Below, piece by piece: positions 67 through 24,041 of a stretch of DNA of 25,879 nt. Under the pieces are notes generated by a model, which saw only the letters and a list, made by a program, of their open reading frames with translations, was not told the origin of the DNA and did no database searches. Positions within the stretch are counted from its first letter, which is position 1. Every line of letters begins with the position of its first letter. Origin of the DNA: a virus (Duplodnaviria > Caudoviricetes); the IMG/VR virus record IMGVR_UViG_3300027653_000051, positions 1 through 25,879 of that record. The stretch is one strand, 5' to 3'. Both the position numbers and the translations under genes were made by a program.

Positions 67-891
67 TTAATTAGTAGCTCGCTTGTGGATCATTATATCG
101 GTATAGGACGAATTGTAATTGATAGAATTTGAAGTAGTTGTCATCACTGCACCACTGAACGGATTTCCTGCATAAGTTCGCGTTTCTATCCACTCACACA
201 ACTCAACGATTTGAGACTTATTGGAAGTGAAGTAGAAGTAATTCGAACCGTTCAATACGTCTAAAACGTCCAAATAATCACGAAGCTTCCAATACGAATC
301 ACTATTGTACGTTTTAGTGTCGGTCGATAGATAGGGTGGATCAACTAAAAAAACTACACCCTCAAGCTCTTTAAAGTCGTTAAAAACACACCTATAATCG
401 CCCTGAATTCGCTCAACACCTGATAAGTATCCGTCAGCATTATAGTCTGCTTTTCTCATCACGTTGTAAAAGGTTTGACACTCCAGCTGCTCAAAATTCA
501 TCATGTACTTGCCAGAAAACAATATATTCGCTGAAAGCGTTACATAATCCACCCACGGTTCTGATGCAATTATATCTAACATCTGTTGCCTGATGGATTC
601 CTTGACCTTCTTATCCCTTGGCTCATTTTCAAGCAATGGACGCAATTTTGACAATAATGCATTCGTCTCCGGAATACGTTTTAAACGAGTTTTAAAATCA
701 TCAAAATCATTCCAAACAACCCGCGCGGACGGGTACAATTGCTTGACTGTATGGCTTAATAAGCCAGAGCCACCAAACAAATCCACGAAAACAGCATCTT
801 CCGGGTACCCTTTTAATGCTTCAATAAACTTCTTTAAAAATCGCCGTTTTTGACCCTGAAACGGCAAAGGTGATTGATTATACTTTTTCAT
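67..891 (-). CDS. DNA adenine methyltransferase (D12-class/Dam-like; resembles Hin1523/Nma1821 Mu-prophage methylases)
   Basis: N-terminal PLPFQGQKRRF, SAM-binding VDLFGGSG, WNDFD and catalytic VDPPY motifs; terminal position in the phage. Confidence 0.9.
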   Translation of the reverse strand: MKKYNQSPLPFQGQKRRFLKKFIEALKGYPEDAVFVDLFGGSGLLSHTVKQLYPSARVVWNDFDDFKTRLKRIPETNALLSKLRPLLENEPRDKKVKESIRQQMLDIIASEPWVDYVTLSANILFSGKYMMNFEQLECQTFYNVMRKADYNADGYLSGVERIQGDYRCVFNDFKELEGVVFLVDPPYLSTDTKTYNSDSYWKLRDYLDVLDVLNGSNYFYFTSNKSQIVELCEWIETRTYAGNPFSGAVMTTTSNSINYNSSYTDIMIHKRATN

Positions 892-903
892 TTTATATAT
901 TTG
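873..903 (+). promoter_or_regulatory. Bacteroidota sigma70-type promoter for the 72-aa ORF
   Basis: ATTG (873-876), 19-nt spacer, TATATTTG (896-903), close to the TTTG-N19-21-TAnnTTTG consensus; ATG at 920. Confidence 0.55.
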
Positions 904-919
904 TTAAAACTTATTTATT

Positions 920-1138
920 ATGAATACTTTTCTTAAAGTGTTTTCTGAAGATGGAAACACAATCTTACATTATTTAAATGCCGAACATTTTGTTAGCAAT
1001 TTGATGTCACCAGCTGTATTTACCACAGGAGAGTCTTTTCATATTTCAGAAATTACTTACATTGCGACTAATGTGGTTGTTCTTTACAAGAATGGTGAAG
1101 TACATATATGTGTTTATGCTAAAGCTTTAAAAGAGTAG
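920..1138 (+). CDS. Small hypothetical protein (moron-like, opposite to the late operon)
   Basis: 72-aa ORF that almost fills the gap between the methylase and the TS-like gene; own promoter motif; AT-rich codon usage. Confidence 0.6.
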   Translation: MNTFLKVFSEDGNTILHYLNAEHFVSNLMSPAVFTTGESFHISEITYIATNVVVLYKNGEVHICVYAKALKE

Positions 1139-1783
1139 CTAAACATTCAAATTAAACTTCGTTCTATTCCCATTGAGCAACTCTTTGGTCGCTTCTATAT
1201 TATTCTTGTAAATATGCACATTGCCCAAAAACAATGTGATTGAGCGCAATGGCACATCTATTTGTCTACTGATTAAATACAAATGGTAGATGTCCGCAGG
1301 AAGTCCTAAACTTGCATCTGAGCTACGCTGATAAGCAGAGATGACAAGCTTACCTCTATCTATCTGAAATTGAATGAGCGAAAGGCACGGCTGTTGATTG
1401 CTCTCGACATCTGTACGACCGAGAAATAATACATAATTCTTTGAATTGCGCTTCTCTTTGTTGATTTTCTTAATTAAGTCCGGGAGTTGCTCAAAATATG
1501 TCGGGTAGGAATTAACCAGAATAGAACCGCAGTAATCCCACCAATCAATTCCATTTTCTTTATAAGTCTCCACCAATCGTTCACCTTTCTGAAACAGCTC
1601 CAACTCGGTTTTTAGCTTATTCCGAGCCACACCATGCGTTTCAAAGATTTCTAACAAATCAGCTGGCTTCAGCCGCAACACTTCATCTGTCAAATAAACA
1701 ATACTTCCCTTCTTGTTTACCTGAGTTTTTCCTTTGTTTAGGATTTTACCTAAAATCTCGTGATACTTATTCTTCATTTTCAT
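1139..1783 (-). CDS. Divergent thymidylate-synthase-family protein (possible dCMP methyl/hydroxymethyltransferase)
   Basis: Catalytic PC motif (QPCLSLIQF), YQRSSD-LGLP and NVHIY motifs. Start moved from TTG 1846 to ATG 1783 (or 1777), which has an A-rich context. Confidence 0.85.
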   Translation of the reverse strand: MKMKNKYHEILGKILNKGKTQVNKKGSIVYLTDEVLRLKPADLLEIFETHGVARNKLKTELELFQKGERLVETYKENGIDWWDYCGSILVNSYPTYFEQLPDLIKKINKEKRNSKNYVLFLGRTDVESNQQPCLSLIQFQIDRGKLVISAYQRSSDASLGLPADIYHLYLISRQIDVPLRSITLFLGNVHIYKNNIEATKELLNGNRTKFNLNV

Positions 1784-1793
1784 TATATTTGCA
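1784..1793 (+). promoter_or_regulatory. Candidate -7 promoter element for an antisense RNA
   Basis: TATATTTGCA pointing into the structured leader; no clear -33 TTTG found. Confidence 0.45.
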
Positions 1794-1930
1794 CCTCTCA
1801 CGGTATTAAATACAAAACCCACAATCAGAAGACTTATGTCCTCCAACTGTGGGCTTTGTGCTTAATTAAAAATACCGTGAGAAGTTTTTTAATTTGTTGG
1901 AGGACTTTTTAACCGCTCCAACTCGGTTTT
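1794..1930. ncRNA. Structured leader of the TS-like gene and/or antisense small RNA
   Basis: Inverted repeats 1796-1807/1871-1882 (12 bp), 1812-1823/1848-1859, 1838-1847/1896-1905 (10 bp) and 1911-1915/1924-1928; stem mismatches read as G-U pairs on the minus strand. Confidence 0.65.
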
Positions 1931-3072: not shown

Positions 3073-3878
3073 CACCAAATAACAAGTTTTGCACCCTCAG
3101 GTATTGTTAAGTTAATATCAACAGCAAGTCTCAATTGCCATTGAGCACCACCAATTGGTGGTCTTCTTAATTCTGTTGTGCTTAACACGTGTCTGCCGTA
3201 TGTATCTTTTAGACTAAATTTTCTATATGCCTGTCCAGGTCCTATTTCCTCCCATACTATATCCCAATGTGTACCTTGCATGAATGCTTGGCCGTTATCC
3301 CATGCTAATACTGGCAGAGCACCTGGTGTGAGTTCTATTGTTCTAATTACATTAGGTGTAAGGTCTATTTGATACGCTGTGATATCAAAGACCTTCTTCC
3401 ATCCCAAATAATTAACAGCTTCACCTTCTAAGTCTCTAACACCAACAACTTTTGTGGATTTTTCTAAATGCACAACCTCTAAACTTGTAGGAGGAGTCTT
3501 TAAATTTTTAAAGTCTAACTCAAACACTCGGAAAATCCCCCCAGAATCGCCAACGTCATACAGAGAGAACATTGTTCCTTTATTATGCTTTTGTATAAAT
3601 ATTTTATTAGGAACATTAGGGTAACCTCCAGTTTGTCCGTCATTATACCCATCTACTCCAATAGCTACATCGAATATCTTCCTGCCCGCTATATTTTGTG
3701 TAGATGTTAGATCTACATATCCTTCAACTTTTAAAGGAACCGCGTCACGTGTTGGGGTATTAGCAATCGCATACACTTCCATTCCAGTGGCTGTGCGAAT
3801 GAAATAGATTCCATTAACATCCCTATCCTGCGCTGCAGGTAATGCCGTCAATGCGTATGGTGTGAATTTATCTGCCAT
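3072..3878 (-). CDS. Tail-fibre-associated/receptor-binding protein (putative)
   Basis: VDLTSTQNIAGRKIF fibre repeat; N-terminus paralogous to the upstream gene; position in the fibre cluster. Confidence 0.6.
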   Translation of the reverse strand: MADKFTPYALTALPAAQDRDVNGIYFIRTATGMEVYAIANTPTRDAVPLKVEGYVDLTSTQNIAGRKIFDVAIGVDGYNDGQTGGYPNVPNKIFIQKHNKGTMFSLYDVGDSGGIFRVFELDFKNLKTPPTSLEVVHLEKSTKVVGVRDLEGEAVNYLGWKKVFDITAYQIDLTPNVIRTIELTPGALPVLAWDNGQAFMQGTHWDIVWEEIGPGQAYRKFSLKDTYGRHVLSTTELRRPPIGGAQWQLRLAVDINLTIPEGAKLVIW

Positions 3879-16301: not shown

Positions 16302-17447
16302 TTACGCTACTGTTACTGTGATAGTATCTGTTTTGTTTCCGTCGATAGTTGTAACTGTAATTGTCGCCGTACCGGTTCCAATAGCCGTCACCAATCCAGT
16401 TGCTGAAACTGTTGCAACTGCTGTATCATCGCTCGAATAGGTCACATTCTTGTTACCCGCATGCGCTGGTTGAATGTTGATCACTAATTGCTCTGTTTCG
16501 TCAACTTCTAAGTTGATTGGATCATTCTCTATAGTCACAGAATCAACCGCAGGTGCAGATTGACCGATAATTGCACCGATTGATTCATTCTTCGCTGGTA
16601 ATGCGATGAAGTAGTGGCGATAATTCAATTTGTTCGTTTGATTTTCTGGATCTTGAGCAGCATCAGCGAAGTATTGTTTAGTCAATCCTGTTTTCTTCGC
16701 GATGTTTTCTTTATAAAACGCAACCGACGCTGGAACGTCTCCATCGGCTGGAATTGCACCCCAAGCTTTTTTCACACCCGTTGAATCGTAATAAGGATTT
16801 GATACGTAAGAATAGATTTCAAAGCCCGCGATGATTGGCGCTGTTTTACCTGTGTTTATATTTTGCAACAAATCACCGAATCGCTTACGATCTCTTAATA
16901 ATTGATTGTAATGATCGTTACATAAAACCAAACGACGACCTTCTGCTGGTACCTCCGCGTCATCAAAGGCTGATTTCAACGCTACAATTGCATTGTACAC
17001 ATCGCCGTCATGGTTATTTAAATCAACCACTGGCGTTGTAGCTGTATTTACCTGTGGAGCAATCGCATGGATAGCTTTCTTATATTTTGTTGTGTTTAGT
17101 TGCACAACATGCCCGCGAGTAGCGGAGTCTATTCTACGATAACTTGCTCCTATAATTTGATCATCCGAAAGCGTTGTAACCTTCGTCTGAAATTTGTCTA
17201 ACGCAACCACTGCTTCATCATCTGTAAATACTTGTAAAGCGATTGGATAAGTAGTATTGTTGATCAATACTTCTGGTTTAAAATTCTCAACGGGAATGTG
17301 AATCAAGTTCTGCTCACCTGCAGTGCCTGATCCGACCTCGATGATATCTGTATCAAGTTCTTCAATGCCATCCAACCAAGGAGCGACATTTGCGGTTGTT
17401 AAAAGTTGGATAACTCGCGCCAACCAAACTTCTGCGAAATTCTTCAT
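16302..17447 (-). CDS. Major capsid protein with C-terminal Ig-like (Big_2) domain
   Basis: Follows protease/scaffold; FD.A.VP.EGR.LVL and IAGFEIY motifs; NKNVTYSSDD..VATVS.TGLVTA.G.GTATITVTT.DG is Big_2-like. Confidence 0.88.
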   Translation of the reverse strand: MKNFAEVWLARVIQLLTTANVAPWLDGIEELDTDIIEVGSGTAGEQNLIHIPVENFKPEVLINNTTYPIALQVFTDDEAVVALDKFQTKVTTLSDDQIIGASYRRIDSATRGHVVQLNTTKYKKAIHAIAPQVNTATTPVVDLNNHDGDVYNAIVALKSAFDDAEVPAEGRRLVLCNDHYNQLLRDRKRFGDLLQNINTGKTAPIIAGFEIYSYVSNPYYDSTGVKKAWGAIPADGDVPASVAFYKENIAKKTGLTKQYFADAAQDPENQTNKLNYRHYFIALPAKNESIGAIIGQSAPAVDSVTIENDPINLEVDETEQLVINIQPAHAGNKNVTYSSDDTAVATVSATGLVTAIGTGTATITVTTIDGNKTDTITVTVA

Positions 17448-18555: not shown

Positions 18556-18993
18556 ATGGCGAAAAGGAAATTATCGAAGGATCGAGAATACGCGAAGATT
18601 TTATACACTCAAATGGGCTTGACACAAAAAGAGATTGCCCAACGGGTTGGAGTTACGGAAAAAACCATCGGCCGATGGAAAAATGATCCTGATGACAACT
18701 GGGATGATCTAAAAACTGTCTTCACAACGACAAGGACGAACATTGTCAAAAATCTTCAAAGGCAAATGGAGCTTTGGCAAAAGGAAATCGGCAATAATAA
18801 ACTGGCAGATAGTAAAGAGGTAGACATCCTTGTGAAGCTTGCGAGTGCTGTTCGAAAGCTTGAAACCGATACTGGAATAGCCGAAATCGTCGATACCGGC
18901 ATCAAGTTTATCAACTTCCTCCAGGAACATAACCCTAAACTATCGAAAGAGACTGCACATTGGTTTGATTTATTCATAAAAAACAAAATTTAA
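18556..18993 (+). CDS. Terminase small subunit-like HTH protein
   Basis: TQKEIA.RVGVTEKTI.RW....W helix-turn-helix; coupled to TerL by TAATG. Confidence 0.8.
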   Translation: MAKRKLSKDREYAKILYTQMGLTQKEIAQRVGVTEKTIGRWKNDPDDNWDDLKTVFTTTRTNIVKNLQRQMELWQKEIGNNKLADSKEVDILVKLASAVRKLETDTGIAEIVDTGIKFINFLQEHNPKLSKETAHWFDLFIKNKI

Positions 18994-20516
18994 TGGCGAA
19001 AAAACTAACAGATAAGCAGTATCTCGAAAAGTGGGAGGTGTTCAGATCGAACATATCAAAAGCTACCCCTGTCAATCTCAATGAAACTGTTTCGCAAAAG
19101 GAGAAGCGAATTAAGGATTTGGAACGACGTCCGGAGGAATGGTTTAAGTACTATTTCCCGAACTTCTACACATCCGAACCGGCACCATTTCACAAACGAG
19201 CAACGAAAAGAGTACTTACCAAAATGGAGTGGTTCGAGGTTCGACCATGGGCGAGAGAATTGGCGAAATCGGCAAGGACGATGATGGAAGTAATCTATTT
19301 GACTACGACCAAACGAAAGAAAAATGTTTTGTTGGTATCAAATAATTACGATAATGCCGAACGCCTATTGATGCCTTTCAAAGCCATTTTCGAATTCAAT
19401 AATCGACTGATCAATGACTATGGCCAATTTAAGAATTTAGGCCAATGGGAAAACGGCGAATTTGTAACAAAACAAGGTGCTTCGTTCCGTGCGTTGGGTG
19501 CTGGTCAATCGCCTCGTGGTACTCGAAACGATGCGGTACGACCAGACGTAATTATAATTGACGATATCGATACCGACGAAGAAGTTCGAAACAAAGACAG
19601 AATCAAAGCCAAAATCGATTGGGTGGAACAAGCGCTAATTCCAACGCGTTCGATTTCAAATCCATTGACGATCATTGCCAATGGAAACATCATCGGAAAG
19701 TACACTACGATTACCGAATTGATGAAAAAAGCCGACCACGCGCAAATTGTAAACATTCGCGATAAAAACGGTAAATCCACCTGGCCAACAAAAAACACAG
19801 AAGAAGCCATCGACCGTGTTTTGAAGACGATTTCTTATCGTTCGGCACAAAAAGAATACTTCAACAATCCAATTTCGGAAGGAACTGTTTTCACCGATTT
19901 ATATTATGATCGAGTGCCAAAGCTATCAACCTGCGAAAAGGTCGCTGTTTACGCCGATCCTTCACCTTCCAACAACACCCGAACGAAATCTTCGAGAAAA
20001 TCGGTCGGAATCATAGCGTATAAGAATGGTAACATTTATTTACATACTGTTTGGCTGGACAACGTAACCAATGCGCAATTTGTTCAATGGATATATGCAG
20101 CTTGTTTGATACTCGACCGTGAAGGAGTGGATCCAAAACGAGTGCATATTGAGAACAACTCGCTTCAAAATCCACACTACGAACAAGTAATCGTTCCATT
20201 GATCCAAGAGCATTTCAGAAAAACGAAATATCGAATTCCACTAAGACCAGACAACCGAAAGAAACCTTCAAAATTCGAACGAATTGAAGGAACGCTCGAG
20301 CCGATTTGGCGAAATGGGAATCTGATTTTTAACATCAGAGAGAAGGAAAACCCGCACATGATGCGAATGGAAGAGGAAATGCTCGGAGTGAGTGAAAATG
20401 CTAAAGATTTGGACGGTCCCGACATGTTGGAAGGCGGTACTTGGATTATCTTAAATCGAGCTTTAAAGGAGGATTTACCTTATGCATTTGGAAGAATAAA
20501 TAACCGAAGATTTTAA
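18993..20516 (+). CDS. Terminase large subunit
   Basis: Variant Walker A (WARELAKS), RG.R..RPDVIIIDD Walker B, nuclease YADPS and DGPD motifs. Confidence 0.9.
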   Translation: MAKKLTDKQYLEKWEVFRSNISKATPVNLNETVSQKEKRIKDLERRPEEWFKYYFPNFYTSEPAPFHKRATKRVLTKMEWFEVRPWARELAKSARTMMEVIYLTTTKRKKNVLLVSNNYDNAERLLMPFKAIFEFNNRLINDYGQFKNLGQWENGEFVTKQGASFRALGAGQSPRGTRNDAVRPDVIIIDDIDTDEEVRNKDRIKAKIDWVEQALIPTRSISNPLTIIANGNIIGKYTTITELMKKADHAQIVNIRDKNGKSTWPTKNTEEAIDRVLKTISYRSAQKEYFNNPISEGTVFTDLYYDRVPKLSTCEKVAVYADPSPSNNTRTKSSRKSVGIIAYKNGNIYLHTVWLDNVTNAQFVQWIYAACLILDREGVDPKRVHIENNSLQNPHYEQVIVPLIQEHFRKTKYRIPLRPDNRKKPSKFERIEGTLEPIWRNGNLIFNIREKENPHMMRMEEEMLGVSENAKDLDGPDMLEGGTWIILNRALKEDLPYAFGRINNRRF

Positions 20517-20527
20517 AACTTAAAAAT

Positions 20528-20989
20528 ATGTTTCTAAAAATAAACGACTTAAAAAACTCGATTTATAACTACCAAATCGACCAAATCACAGACGGTGATA
20601 CTAATATCACGCTTCAAGCGATGGCAGCCGCAGAAGAAGAAGTGAGATCGTATTTAACGGCAAACAATCGCCGCGAATGGGCGGATGGACGCCTTTTATA
20701 TGATGTTGACAAAATACTTTCGGCCGAAGGTGATGAAAGAAATCCATTAATTGTGAGCCACATGGCAACGATTGCGAAGTATTACATCGTCGAGCTCTGC
20801 AACGCTGATATCATTTATGAAGTAGCAAAAGAGCGTTACGATCGAGCCATTAACTGGTTTGAGAAAATCGCGAACGGTGATTTGAATCTCAACACTTTGC
20901 CAGTAATCAATCCAGAAAAGGACGATTCGAAAGATGAAAGCACATTCCCATGGACTTATGGATCACGCAAAAAATTTAACCATGAATAA
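20528..20989 (+). CDS. Mu gp36-like head-tail connector (DUF1320-like)
   Basis: A..EV.SYL...YD...I, IA.Y and RY..AI.W...I..G motifs. Confidence 0.8.
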   Translation: MFLKINDLKNSIYNYQIDQITDGDTNITLQAMAAAEEEVRSYLTANNRREWADGRLLYDVDKILSAEGDERNPLIVSHMATIAKYYIVELCNADIIYEVAKERYDRAINWFEKIANGDLNLNTLPVINPEKDDSKDESTFPWTYGSRKKFNHE

Positions 20990-22190
20990 AAATAACTTAA
21001 ACGCAAAAGTCGGCAAAACTTTAAAGGCCGACGAAAAGAGAAGACTATATCCAGCAATCTTTGATAAGCCAATTTCTTTGATTCGCAAGGATATTCAAGA
21101 TTGGCGAATCGCAAGAATGGCAGCAATGAATGCAGACCAACCATCGAGATGGAGGATCTATAATTTGTACGAAACCGACATCGTTTTGGACGCATTGGTG
21201 ACTTCACAAATTGAAAACAGAATTCAATCAACACTTGGAGCTTCATTCAGTTTCGAGAATGCAAACGGCGAAGTGGACGATGAAGTAACCAATCAATTTC
21301 AAACGTCAAGATTGATTGATAAAATCATAACCGAAATTTTAAACACTCGATTTTACGGCCATTCGCTCATTGAGTTAAATTGGAAGGACAAGGAATTGGA
21401 TTGCAATTTGATTCCGCGTCAAAATGTTATTCCGGAGCAAGGAAAAGTAATCTTTGATTATACCGATTTCACAGCTGAAGGTGTGAAGTATCGAGAATTG
21501 CCCGAATACGGAACTTATTTGCTTGAATTTGGTGACGATAAGGATTTGGGACTGCTCAATAAAGCAGTGCCACACGTGTTGTTTAAAAGATTCGCACAAA
21601 GCTGTTGGAGTGAACTCGCCGAGATTTACGGCATACCTCCACGCGTTATGAAGACAGACACTCAAGATGCCAGGGCTTTGCGTCGTGGTGAAAAAATGAT
21701 GTCAGAAATGGGTGCAGCTGCGTGGTTCATCATCGACACAAACGAGGAATTCGAATGGGCAAAGGCAGTTCCAACCAACGGAGACGTTTATAAGAATTTA
21801 ATCAACCTTTGCGACAATCAAATCAGCCTTCTATTGTTAGGCGCAGTAATAGGCCAAGATACTCAACATGGATCTTACAGCAAGGAGGTGGCGAGCCAAA
21901 ACATTCTTGACAGTTTGGTAGCGTCCGACATGGCTATGGTTGAAATGAACATGAACGACGTAGTCATTCCTTCCTTAATAAATTTAGGTCTGATCAAAGA
22001 GGGTTATCGATTCAAGTACGAAGCTGCGGAGGATATCAAAGAACTTTGGGAAATGACTTCAAACGCTTTGAACCATTTTGAAGTTGATCCAAAGTGGGTT
22101 CGTCAGAAGTTTGGAATTGAAGTAACTGGTCGACGCGAACTGCGTTTGTTCGACAATCCAGATTTAAACGCTGAAAGTTTTTTCGTTTAA
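20982..22190 (+). CDS. Portal protein (DUF935/Mu gp29-like)
   Basis: FYGHSLIE, LGLL..A, W..LAE.YG.P.R and IS..LLG motifs; ATG 20982 overlaps the gp36-like stop. Confidence 0.9.
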   Translation: MNKNNLNAKVGKTLKADEKRRLYPAIFDKPISLIRKDIQDWRIARMAAMNADQPSRWRIYNLYETDIVLDALVTSQIENRIQSTLGASFSFENANGEVDDEVTNQFQTSRLIDKIITEILNTRFYGHSLIELNWKDKELDCNLIPRQNVIPEQGKVIFDYTDFTAEGVKYRELPEYGTYLLEFGDDKDLGLLNKAVPHVLFKRFAQSCWSELAEIYGIPPRVMKTDTQDARALRRGEKMMSEMGAAAWFIIDTNEEFEWAKAVPTNGDVYKNLINLCDNQISLLLLGAVIGQDTQHGSYSKEVASQNILDSLVASDMAMVEMNMNDVVIPSLINLGLIKEGYRFKYEAAEDIKELWEMTSNALNHFEVDPKWVRQKFGIEVTGRRELRLFDNPDLNAESFFV

Positions 22191-22221
22191 GGGCTAACAG
22201 AAATCGGCTAACTGTTAGCCC
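22178..22221 (+). promoter_or_regulatory. -1 programmed ribosomal frameshift signal
   Basis: T TTT TTC heptamer (22178-22184), 6-nt spacer, perfect 10-bp stem GGGCTAACAG/CTGTTAGCCC (22191-22221). Confidence 0.75.
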
Positions 22222-22240
22222 GCAGACATATTTCAAAGGA

Positions 22241-23059
22241 TTGCATACACGGCTGAACAATATATATGCGTGCAATTGCGAAGATTGCAAGACGAAAACG
22301 ATTCATCTTGCAGCAGATTCTAACGGCTTTTTTAAAGACGTTTTAAACGCTGCTAAAAATGCTTTAAAATACCTTTTAACGAAACAGACTTTTAAAGAAG
22401 AAGACTTGGGCGAAGAGCCTTATCAGAGGCTAATAGATGAAACATATAAGGTGTTTAACAAGGCAATAATGGATAACGACGTGCCCGATGTGATGCGTAA
22501 AGCTTTGCAATCGGATGCCTTCCTTTTTGGAACGCTAAAAACCCGAGCGCAAATGTTCGAAGCTTCAACCTATTTATTGAATCCGGACGGAACGATAAAG
22601 ACCTGGCAACAATTCGAGCGAGATTTTAGGCAGGTTTTTGAAGATTACAACCAAAATTATTTGGAAGCGGAATATCAGTTTGCGGTGAATAGCGCTCAAA
22701 TGGCGGCTAAATGGACGGAGCTCGACGATTCTGGTAGATATCTACTTCAATACAGAACGGCAATGGACGATAGAGTGAGAGAATCGCATCAAGCATTGGA
22801 AGGAATCACACTTCCAAAGGACGATCCTTTTTGGCGTGATTTCTATCCACCCAATGGATGGCGCTGCCGTTGCCAAGTCGTGGAAGTAAGCAAAGCGAGA
22901 TATGAAGCTTCTGAATCTGAAGAAGCAATCGCAAAAGGAATGGCCGCTACACAGCAGATAGGTAAAGATGGTCGAAATCGCTTGGCTATGTTTAGGTTCA
23001 ATCCTGGTATGGAAAAAAAATTGTTTCCACCGGATCATCCATATACAAAAATCAAGTGA
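22241..23059 (+). CDS. Mu gpF-like minor head protein (frame is open back to the slippery site at 22178)
   Basis: LQYRTA.D.RVR.SH..L.G.TLP.DDPFW....PPNGWRCRC motif. Confidence 0.9.
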   Translation: MHTRLNNIYACNCEDCKTKTIHLAADSNGFFKDVLNAAKNALKYLLTKQTFKEEDLGEEPYQRLIDETYKVFNKAIMDNDVPDVMRKALQSDAFLFGTLKTRAQMFEASTYLLNPDGTIKTWQQFERDFRQVFEDYNQNYLEAEYQFAVNSAQMAAKWTELDDSGRYLLQYRTAMDDRVRESHQALEGITLPKDDPFWRDFYPPNGWRCRCQVVEVSKARYEASESEEAIAKGMAATQQIGKDGRNRLAMFRFNPGMEKKLFPPDHPYTKIK

Positions 23060-23577
23060 AAATGCCTTTAAAAAAATTCGTACATCAAATATTGAAAGAC
23101 ATTCAAATCGACGTATCGGACGACTTTGACCGAAACTTCGAGCGAAAAGCTTTCTTTGATAAAGCATGGCCACGGAATAAGTTGGTCAATCGGAGAGGAT
23201 CAAAGATGGCACGAACGAACAATTTACGTCGATCGATTATGTCCAGAATTCAAAGTACTGAAGTTGTATTCAGCAGTTCTTTGCCTTATGCAAAGATCCA
23301 AAACGATGGTGGCGAAATAGTAGTAACCAAACAGATGAAGAAGTATTTCTGGGCAATGTATTACGAGGCAGGAGGTGACAATAACGGAAATCCGACCATC
23401 GAAGCCATCCAATTCAAGAATTTGGCGTTGATGCCTGTTGGTAAAAGAATCAAAATTCCATCGAGAAGGTTCGTCGGCGACCACCCAATAGTTCGTCAGA
23501 ATGTTCGCACGGCGATTCGTTTGAACATCAAAAGTGCGATGACAAGTTTTGTAGATAGATTTAAAAGTAAGTTATGA
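23056..23577 (+). CDS. Virion morphogenesis protein (Mu gpG/P2 gpS-like)
   Basis: LRRSI, YAKIQN.GG and IP.RRFVG motifs. Confidence 0.85.
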   Translation: MKMPLKKFVHQILKDIQIDVSDDFDRNFERKAFFDKAWPRNKLVNRRGSKMARTNNLRRSIMSRIQSTEVVFSSSLPYAKIQNDGGEIVVTKQMKKYFWAMYYEAGGDNNGNPTIEAIQFKNLALMPVGKRIKIPSRRFVGDHPIVRQNVRTAIRLNIKSAMTSFVDRFKSKL

Positions 23578-24041
23578 AAAGTATTGAAAAAGAAGTATTG
23601 GAAGCAATCCAAAAGCAAATCAACGACGGAGTCGAATCCATTAACTATGTGGATGAAGATTGGGGGCAATTGGATTTTTACGGGCCACAAATACCCGTCA
23701 AATGGCCGTGTGTGCTGATCAACATTGCAGGTGCGAACTTCTCGAATATTGGGCGTGATAATAATTTAACACCTCCCAATCGGCAAATAGCTGATCAAAC
23801 TGTTGAATTAACTGTTGCGAATCTCAAGCTAACAAATTCAAGCTACAAAGCGCCCAACACTCAAAAATGGCATGCGTTCGAAATGTGGGAGGTTCTGCAA
23901 GAAGTTCATCAGAAAATCCAAAGTTTCCGACCTTCAGAACGTACTGGAATGCTCATTCGAAGTTCTTACCAAAGGATAAGGCGTGATGATGGCGTTCAAG
24001 CTGTGCGAGTAGTATATACGTTGACGGCTAACAACGTTTAG
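23574..24041 (+). CDS. Mu gp37-like tail completion protein
   Basis: YVDEDWGQL....PVKWPCVLI motif; follows gpG-like gene. Confidence 0.6.
   Translation: MKSIEKEVLEAIQKQINDGVESINYVDEDWGQLDFYGPQIPVKWPCVLINIAGANFSNIGRDNNLTPPNRQIADQTVELTVANLKLTNSSYKAPNTQKWHAFEMWEVLQEVHQKIQSFRPSERTGMLIRSSYQRIRRDDGVQAVRVVYTLTANNV

Follow-up and report, generated by a model that had tools for sequence, protein, structure and literature searches.

The junction between the portal gene and gpF in this phage raises the question of how gpF, a MuF-type head protein whose reading frame lies −1 to that of the portal, is translated. The initial annotation had proposed that it is made by −1 frameshifting as a portal-gpF fusion of about 690 aa, a reading that is supported here by the conservation of the heptamer, the phase and the stem distance. 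We find it very probable that the cassette at this junction drives programmed −1 ribosomal frameshifting, giving a 402-aa portal and a predicted 692-aa portal-MuF protein, a conclusion that rests on sequence comparison.

The window, which is the whole stretch of 25,879 nucleotides that was analysed, is a 25.9-kb linear virus record with a Mu-like phage gene set in profile searches. The plus strand encodes terminase, gp36 adaptor, portal (PF06074), gpF (PF04233) and neck; protease, capsid, sheath, tape measure and fibres are encoded on the other strand. The portal relatives that bear names come from Weeksellaceae, e.g. Chryseobacterium, Bergeyella and Empedobacter, and the cultured relatives at 27-30% identity include hankyphage p00 and Winoviridae. 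The genes around the junction are the following:

18556 to 20989, plus strand: small terminase-like gene, large terminase and Mu gp36 head-tail adaptor (profile matches; context)
20982 to 22190, plus strand: Mu-type portal gene, 402 aa (PF06074, E 9e-72; phrog_113)
22175 to 23059, plus strand: gpF/MuF frame, −1 to the portal, short form without C-terminal extension (PF04233, phrog_220)
23062 to 24041, plus strand: neck (gpG-like) gene and the next gene (profile matches; context)

The portal ATG (20982) overlaps the end of the adaptor gene, and an alternative ATG at 20934 would add 16 aa. By profile (242.7 bits against PF06074, cut-off 23.9) and by fold, since its model was matched by Foldseek to the JBD30 connector 8rka (E 7e-11) and the Mu neck 9knu, the protein is a Mu-type portal. 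Its neighbour is MuF1/gpF, both by profile (53.9 bits against PF04233, cut-off 29.6) and by gene order, as it directly follows the portal. The stop-free −1 frame is indeed the gpF frame, as had been claimed. In this phage gpF is a 294-aa frame with PF04233 as the sole Pfam match and no toxin domain, and is not a MuF polymorphic toxin.

Some further features of the window were recorded in passing. The major capsid protein (16305-17447, minus strand) has a C-terminal Ig-like domain fused in frame, and at the end of the tail module an adenine methyltransferase adjoins a thymidylate-synthase-like gene (70-1846, minus strand); thymidylate synthase is also listed among the hankyphage particle proteins (PMC12135933, S6 Table, in the part available). 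A G GTA AAG sequence at 13550-13544 (minus strand) lies near the end of ORF 13828-13538, which precedes the tape measure gene; the −1 frame of this ORF continues to a stop just ahead of the tape measure start, resembling a G/GT tail chaperone frameshift.

The 3′ end of the portal gene reads AGT TTT TTC GTT TAA. The heptamer, 6-nt spacer and 10-bp hairpin described in the initial annotation are all present at the positions it gave:

22178 to 22184, plus strand: slippery heptamer T TTT TTC in the portal frame, read from the sequence
22185 to 22190, plus strand: 6-nt spacer GTTTAA, made up of the last portal codon and the TAA stop, read from the sequence
22191 to 22221, plus strand: perfect 10-bp stem-loop GGGCTAACAG/CTGTTAGCCC, predicted frameshift stimulator (−15.2 kcal/mol)

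The 40-nt segment folds at −16.6, compared with −7.0 ± 2.2 in dinucleotide shuffles, of which 1 in 1000 was equally low, and an Rfam search gave no match at E ≤ 1. The cassette is not an assembly error: contigs from four studies, three of which cover the region in one piece, show no indel across 21900-22600. Four RNA-labelled runs, two of them probably DNA, contained short contigs only, with none across the junction. In a close relative (runs X2, X17 and X18) the sequence is the same through the first stem bases, and the loop and 3′ arm differ from window position 22195 onward, which we take as stem variation among near strains.

For the comparison we collected 327 loci, from four scans (best 80 each), six hand-picked phage records and the window; two of the four scans used an alignment of fused proteins, and the shares given below are not population frequencies. 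Alignments were needed, as single-sequence scans of viral contigs returned no loci. After removal of 27 loci (15 without a gpF match, 7 with the portal end uncovered and 5 without a portal match), gpF was found in the −1 frame in 255 of 300 loci, fused in frame in 39 and in the +1 frame in 6. These correspond to 117 clusters at <75% portal identity, 105 of them −1, 8 fused and 4 other, which are mutually related, so that the counts are not independent events. Their recorded hosts are Flavobacteriia, Bacteroidia, Sphingobacteriia, Chitinophagia and Cytophagia. Two of the loci, L181 and L183, were rejected as true +1 cases; they have a normal cassette with further frame breaks inside gpF, and are probably sequence errors.

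The initial annotation had named variable phase, or stops between the heptamer and gpF, as evidence against its reading; the −1 phase is kept in 105 of the 117 clusters, and none of the 102 anchored clusters has such a stop. Past the heptamer, the median reading length is 444 codons in the −1 frame, one in frame 0 and ten in the +1 frame. In 102 of the 105 −1 clusters an X XXY YYZ heptamer is read in the portal frame and lies within the open gpF frame. It is T TTT TTC in 81, T TTT TTT in 10, A AAT TTT in 10 and A AAA AAA in 1, and the remaining three clusters have C TTT TT (a U_UUU tetramer), 6 nt and a stem. These type counts use corrected anchors for L035, L116 and L128, whereas the Phe-Phe, stem-offset and z tallies use the original ones. 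The H_HH.U_UU.Y class, to which 101 of the 102 heptamers belong, is named among the most efficient E. coli motifs in the available part of PMC4066793, the efficiencies being those of E. coli, not Bacteroidota.

To avoid circularity, the last Phe-Phe pair within 60 nt of the stop was also picked on amino acids alone. Such a pair is present in 91 of the 105 clusters and is written T TTT TTY in all 91, compared with 47 of 299 other Phe-Phe pairs in the same loci. The base ahead of the T run belongs to codons for Asp, Ser, Gly, Asn, Arg and other amino acids, which indicates that the nucleotide itself is what is conserved, and in the alternative Asn-Phe class, which reads A AAT TTT (10 clusters), the protein is altered and the pattern preserved. 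On these codon tallies, the slip site is under synonymous-site selection. In L003 (Flavobacterium phage fF4) the portal end at about 3590-3625 carries A AAA AAA and A AAA AAT, with gpF in the −1 frame and a weak stem, and is perhaps a separate A-type signal.

The stem is tied to the heptamer. A helix of −8 kcal/mol or stronger begins exactly 6 nt downstream of the heptamer in 84% of 109 clusters, and helices of the same strength are found at offsets of −30 to +3 and +11 to +30 in at most 5%. The median stem z is −2.9; downstream of 46 further T TTT TTY sites that lie in frame it is +0.4, and downstream of 145 of 535 other stops it is +0.06. In 18 of the 102 clusters the stop is not one codon past the heptamer; in 17 of these the stem keeps its place relative to the heptamer, and none of the 18 has a comparable helix at the stop. 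The arms themselves are diverse (GCCCC/GGGGC, GGGCT/AGCCC, GACCC/GGGTC and others). In a protein-anchored alignment 22 of 78 rows are fully paired, compared with 10.9 in shuffles that ignore kinship; this modest value arises because the 3′ arm moves, the 5′ arm being fixed. Swaps between C-G and G-C at stem pairs 2-3 were rejected as compensatory changes, as the window clade has a new 5′ arm from a 9-residue insertion, after which its old 5′ arm turned into the 3′ arm. Thus, of the conserved site, −1 phase and covarying stem that the initial annotation had proposed to look for in homologs, the heptamer and phase were found, together with a fixed stem distance, whereas the stem appears to be repeatedly rebuilt at that distance, mostly with new partners, rather than to follow classic pair-by-pair covariation.

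Natural portal-gpF fusions, to which the initial annotation had also referred, do occur in this portal family. We found 82 longer portal relatives that are in-frame fused proteins, 81 of them annotated with both Pfam domains, and their junction motif is FFxxA in 73, LFxxA in 3, FFRL in 1 and neither in 5. What had been overlooked is that the signal is retained in these relatives, with the layout reversed: T TTT TTY is present in the portal frame of 37 of 39 fused loci, the other two sharing the C TTT TT tetramer form (checked in L167). Among 15 distinct fused DNA junctions, 14 have T TTT TTY, a stop-free 6 nt and then a GCCC stem, and in those 14 it is the −1 frame that stops, after 19-43 codons. 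The same reversed layout is seen in Porphyromonas phage011a, with a −1 exit after 21 codons. The stem of the fused class is weaker (median z −2.0, 7 clusters).

In a quick tree built from 77 portal rows, the 12 rows with the reversed layout require four changes, at least two of them forced by strong branches, and a single reversed clade is rejected (p-AU 1e-12), in a test where the group was named after viewing the first tree and four long-branch rows were excluded. The reversed layout probably arose more than once, although such a pattern could also result from recombination between the portal and the junction. Two other kinds of junction were observed. In L024, the remaining one of the 15 fused junctions, an extra T puts gpF in frame, with heptamer and stem kept, as in a hard-wired slip product, which may be a genuine fixed fusion or a homopolymer error; P0124 has the same FFRL junction. 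The sister loci L269 and L279 carry CTT TTT TCG, 6 nt and a stem, yet their gpF is in the +1 (= −2) frame.

The start of gpF bears on one of the alternatives, namely separate translation of gpF from TTG 22241, another near-cognate codon or a later ATG, perhaps by re-initiation past the portal stop, with the stem tuning the coupling. Two features of the frame are relevant here:

22241 to 22243, plus strand: TTG, probable Leu of a conserved LH motif (column of 102 clusters)
22271 to 22288, plus strand: C-x-C-x-x-C motif of the −1 frame, located before the first ATG (its three positions are Cys in 50%, 82% and 68% of 102 clusters)

A TGA at 22172-22174 closes the −1 frame on its 5′ side, just ahead of the heptamer, so that no upstream start can enter the gpF frame. 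The first ATG, at 22469, is residue 98 counted from the heptamer, and across the 102 clusters the first ATG has a median position of codon 89. The conserved part of the protein begins well before this: the LH...Y motif lies within the first 60 residues in 77 clusters, with the first ATG downstream of it in 71 of the 77, and the C-x-C-x-x-C motif is preceded by Tyr in 98% of the 102 clusters. An AlphaFold model of the frame from the slip site (pLDDT 91.5; no PDB match at E ≤ 0.001) has helices 15-30, 46-69 and 80-98 ahead of the first ATG.

The initial annotation had set the TTG aside as lacking the A-rich context of other starts, an argument that does not hold, as 7 A are present in the preceding 15 nt and the 31 other starts in the window have 4-12 (median 8); this ordinary A count speaks for a separate gpF. 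A stronger argument against a TTG start is that its column is a mixed Leu/Phe column, in which the 102 clusters have TTG 12 times, ATG once, a gap three times and other codons 86 times (the commonest codons overall being TTA 23, CTG 17, TTT 13, TTG 12 and CTT 11). Most likely, the TTG encodes the Leu of the LH motif and does not serve as a start. Moreover, 52 of the 77 clusters with the motif lack any ATG, GTG or TTG up to and including it (25 have one), predicted helix 15-30 starts before the TTG, and a conserved gpF start is, on these alignments, absent across the clusters.

The cassette is not universal: some relatives do start MuF separately, which also favours this alternative. The ATG of gpF overlaps the portal end in all four proteobacterial Mu-like phages examined (Mu_3F6, JBD5, Mannheimia 3927AP2 and RC1), none of which has a heptamer in the last 90 nt of the portal, and in the Flavobacterium phages Pippivirus lotta8-2 and FPSV-S1 the genes are separate, with the gpF ATG 4 nt past the portal stop. 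Hankyphage has the full cassette plus an ATG overlapping the portal stop, and both routes to MuF may run in this phage. Nevertheless, a separate gpF would leave unexplained the uniform T TTT TTY, the heptamer-tied stem and the cassette in fused genes, and we regard it as highly improbable for the window.

In hankyphage (L001/L327) two GenBank records disagree on the MuF start, which is annotated at 3769 in p00 and lies 24 nt further on in jmh43; such a discrepancy would be expected of an uncertain start. The predicted fusion is 108 kDa, and, according to the accessible part of PMC12135933 (S6 Table), MuF was found in gel bands at 250-85 kDa and lower. We rejected this band-wise mass spectrometry as evidence for or against a fusion, as small proteins smear into the same band, the 16-kDa adaptor also being listed at 250-85 kDa in that table.

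Transcriptional slippage is a further alternative: the polymerase would insert an extra U at the T run, and normal translation of the lengthened mRNA would yield the fusion. The run has 6-7 T, U7 runs are given as possible slippage sites in the available text of PMC4066793, and the extra T in L024 hard-wires the same fusion. However, most sites are T6C, the 10 A AAT TTT clusters have no run longer than 4, and the heptamer is locked to the codon phase of the portal. The stem, being 3′ of the run, would also still be untranscribed while the polymerase is on it. Slippage of the polymerase is, in our view, very unlikely.

A role of the hairpin as terminator, RNase site or mRNA stabiliser, with the terminal Phe-Phe kept for protein function, is extremely unlikely: 118 of the 120 top portal homologs do end in FFx, and a weak terminator-like sub-stem was flagged on the minus strand at 22220-22206, but a U-rich tail follows the stem in only 9 of 95 clusters on the plus strand and in none of 95 on the minus strand, by which measure the stem is not an intrinsic terminator, selection on the protein cannot fix synonymous codons or the preceding base, nor explain Asn-Phe with A AAT TTT, and portal residues 390-402 have low confidence in the predicted model.

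Programmed −1 frameshifting remains the preferred reading. The comparison provides the heptamer, a structure 5-9 nt downstream, an open and conserved −1 frame and synonymous constraint at the slip site. In the proposed mechanism, the GC-rich stem would make the ribosome pause while UUU occupies the P site and UUC the A site. The two tRNA-Phe would then slip back by one base, and translation would continue past the portal stop into MuF. The predicted products are a 46-kDa portal and an 80-kDa fusion, the latter assumed, by analogy, to be the minority. By comparison with SPP1 gp7, fusion subunits would be built into the portal ring, so that the head would contain a limited number of MuF molecules to be delivered during infection, and the last 13 portal residues could act as a linker. 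The ratio of portal to fusion could also set the dose of effector domains, the window's own MuF being short; complete frames exceed 330 aa in 72 of the 102 clusters, and 15 of 70 long MuF tails match ART, CdiA_C, glutamine deamidase, PBECR2 or LPD3 families. In the gpF tail of L054 (4306-4659), an intein-splicing-domain match below the Pfam cut-off lies inside the MuF frame.

In the fused relatives, reading in frame 0 would give portal-MuF, and a −1 slip would give the portal with a tail of 19-43 residues. The presence of the same cassette in both layouts suggests that these phages need both products. We lean, with some reserve, towards a broader view, in which the cassette is a portable dial for the ratio of portal to portal-MuF whose polarity was flipped several times within one family. 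In most lineages the slip would make the fusion, while at least two separate lineages would have lost the stop, so that MuF entered frame 0 and the slip now yields plain portal; L269 and L279 may represent a −2 or +1 variant. On this view, every portal ring would have to combine plain subunits with MuF-bearing ones.

The cassette can be compared with several known systems. The major head protein of phage A2 is reportedly extended by frameshifting. In the capsid Ig domain of MSTV1 (PMC11375127, as far as its available text goes), a share of the subunits of a structural oligomer receives a C-terminal domain, as proposed here. A2 and MSTV1 extend capsid or tail subunits, whereas the extension proposed here would add a conserved internal head protein, often with an effector-type domain, to the portal. 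With lambda gpG/gpGT, as described in the accessible sections of PMC5009743, the cassette shares a −1 shift near the end of a morphogenesis gene that yields a short and an extended product in a set ratio, and a second ORF without its own start. In contrast to the G products, which are absent from the mature lambda virion, the portal and MuF are both likely virion parts; the signal here is U_UUU_UUC plus a conserved stem, and the layout also occurs reversed. We rejected membership in the lambda G/GT-type class, as the pair does not lie between the major tail and tape measure genes, although it works alike. The dnaX tau/gamma pair likewise produces a long and a short form from one gene, and both truncating and extending layouts are known (PMC5009743, same sections), but dnaX is a cellular gene with an A_AAA_AAG site, whereas here one U-rich cassette serves both layouts in one phage family and appears to have switched more than once.

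In-frame portal-MuF proteins with the same domain order are present in Microbacterium phage clusters EA3, EA5, EA8 and EB (phrog_35074), and the available portion of PMC7302621 describes them as plain fusions and mentions no frameshift at the junction. In SPP1 (PMC6316719, available text) the MuF gene also follows that of the portal (gp6/gp7), and gp7 enters the procapsid in few copies by binding to the portal, about 25% of virions without gp7 being infectious. SPP1 gp7 is a separate portal-binding protein, whereas here MuF would be joined covalently to the portal, in a proportion determined by recoding. The MuF polymorphic toxins treated in the accessible text of PMC5576092 have variable C-terminal domains, as do relatives of the window MuF. 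A remark in the available part of PMC10885494 states that genes fused elsewhere, MuF-like ones among them, may use frameshifting. Our literature search, which lay mostly outside subscription papers and included the accessible parts of PMC10367356 and PMC7911831, found no report of portal-MuF frameshifting, and the word 'portal' is absent from the available text of PMC5009743 and PMC3711429.

A portal is commonly regarded as a ring of identical subunits encoded by an ordinary gene. If programmed frameshifting is confirmed at this junction, a large family of transposable phages in Bacteroidota, with the common gut hankyphage among them, would build its portals from two recoded forms, and databases would carry wrong MuF starts and miss the short product of the fused genes. 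The locus would supply a natural cassette for −1 frameshifting on Bacteroidota ribosomes, available in about 100 sequence variants, and would be a rare example of a single signal that works in both directions. It would also offer a direct way to test by what route a few MuF copies, and the effector domains that many of them bear, enter the head. If the cassette does act as a dial, many 'fused portal-MuF' genes would actually be recoded, and the dial would set the number of MuF-linked effector domains per virion.
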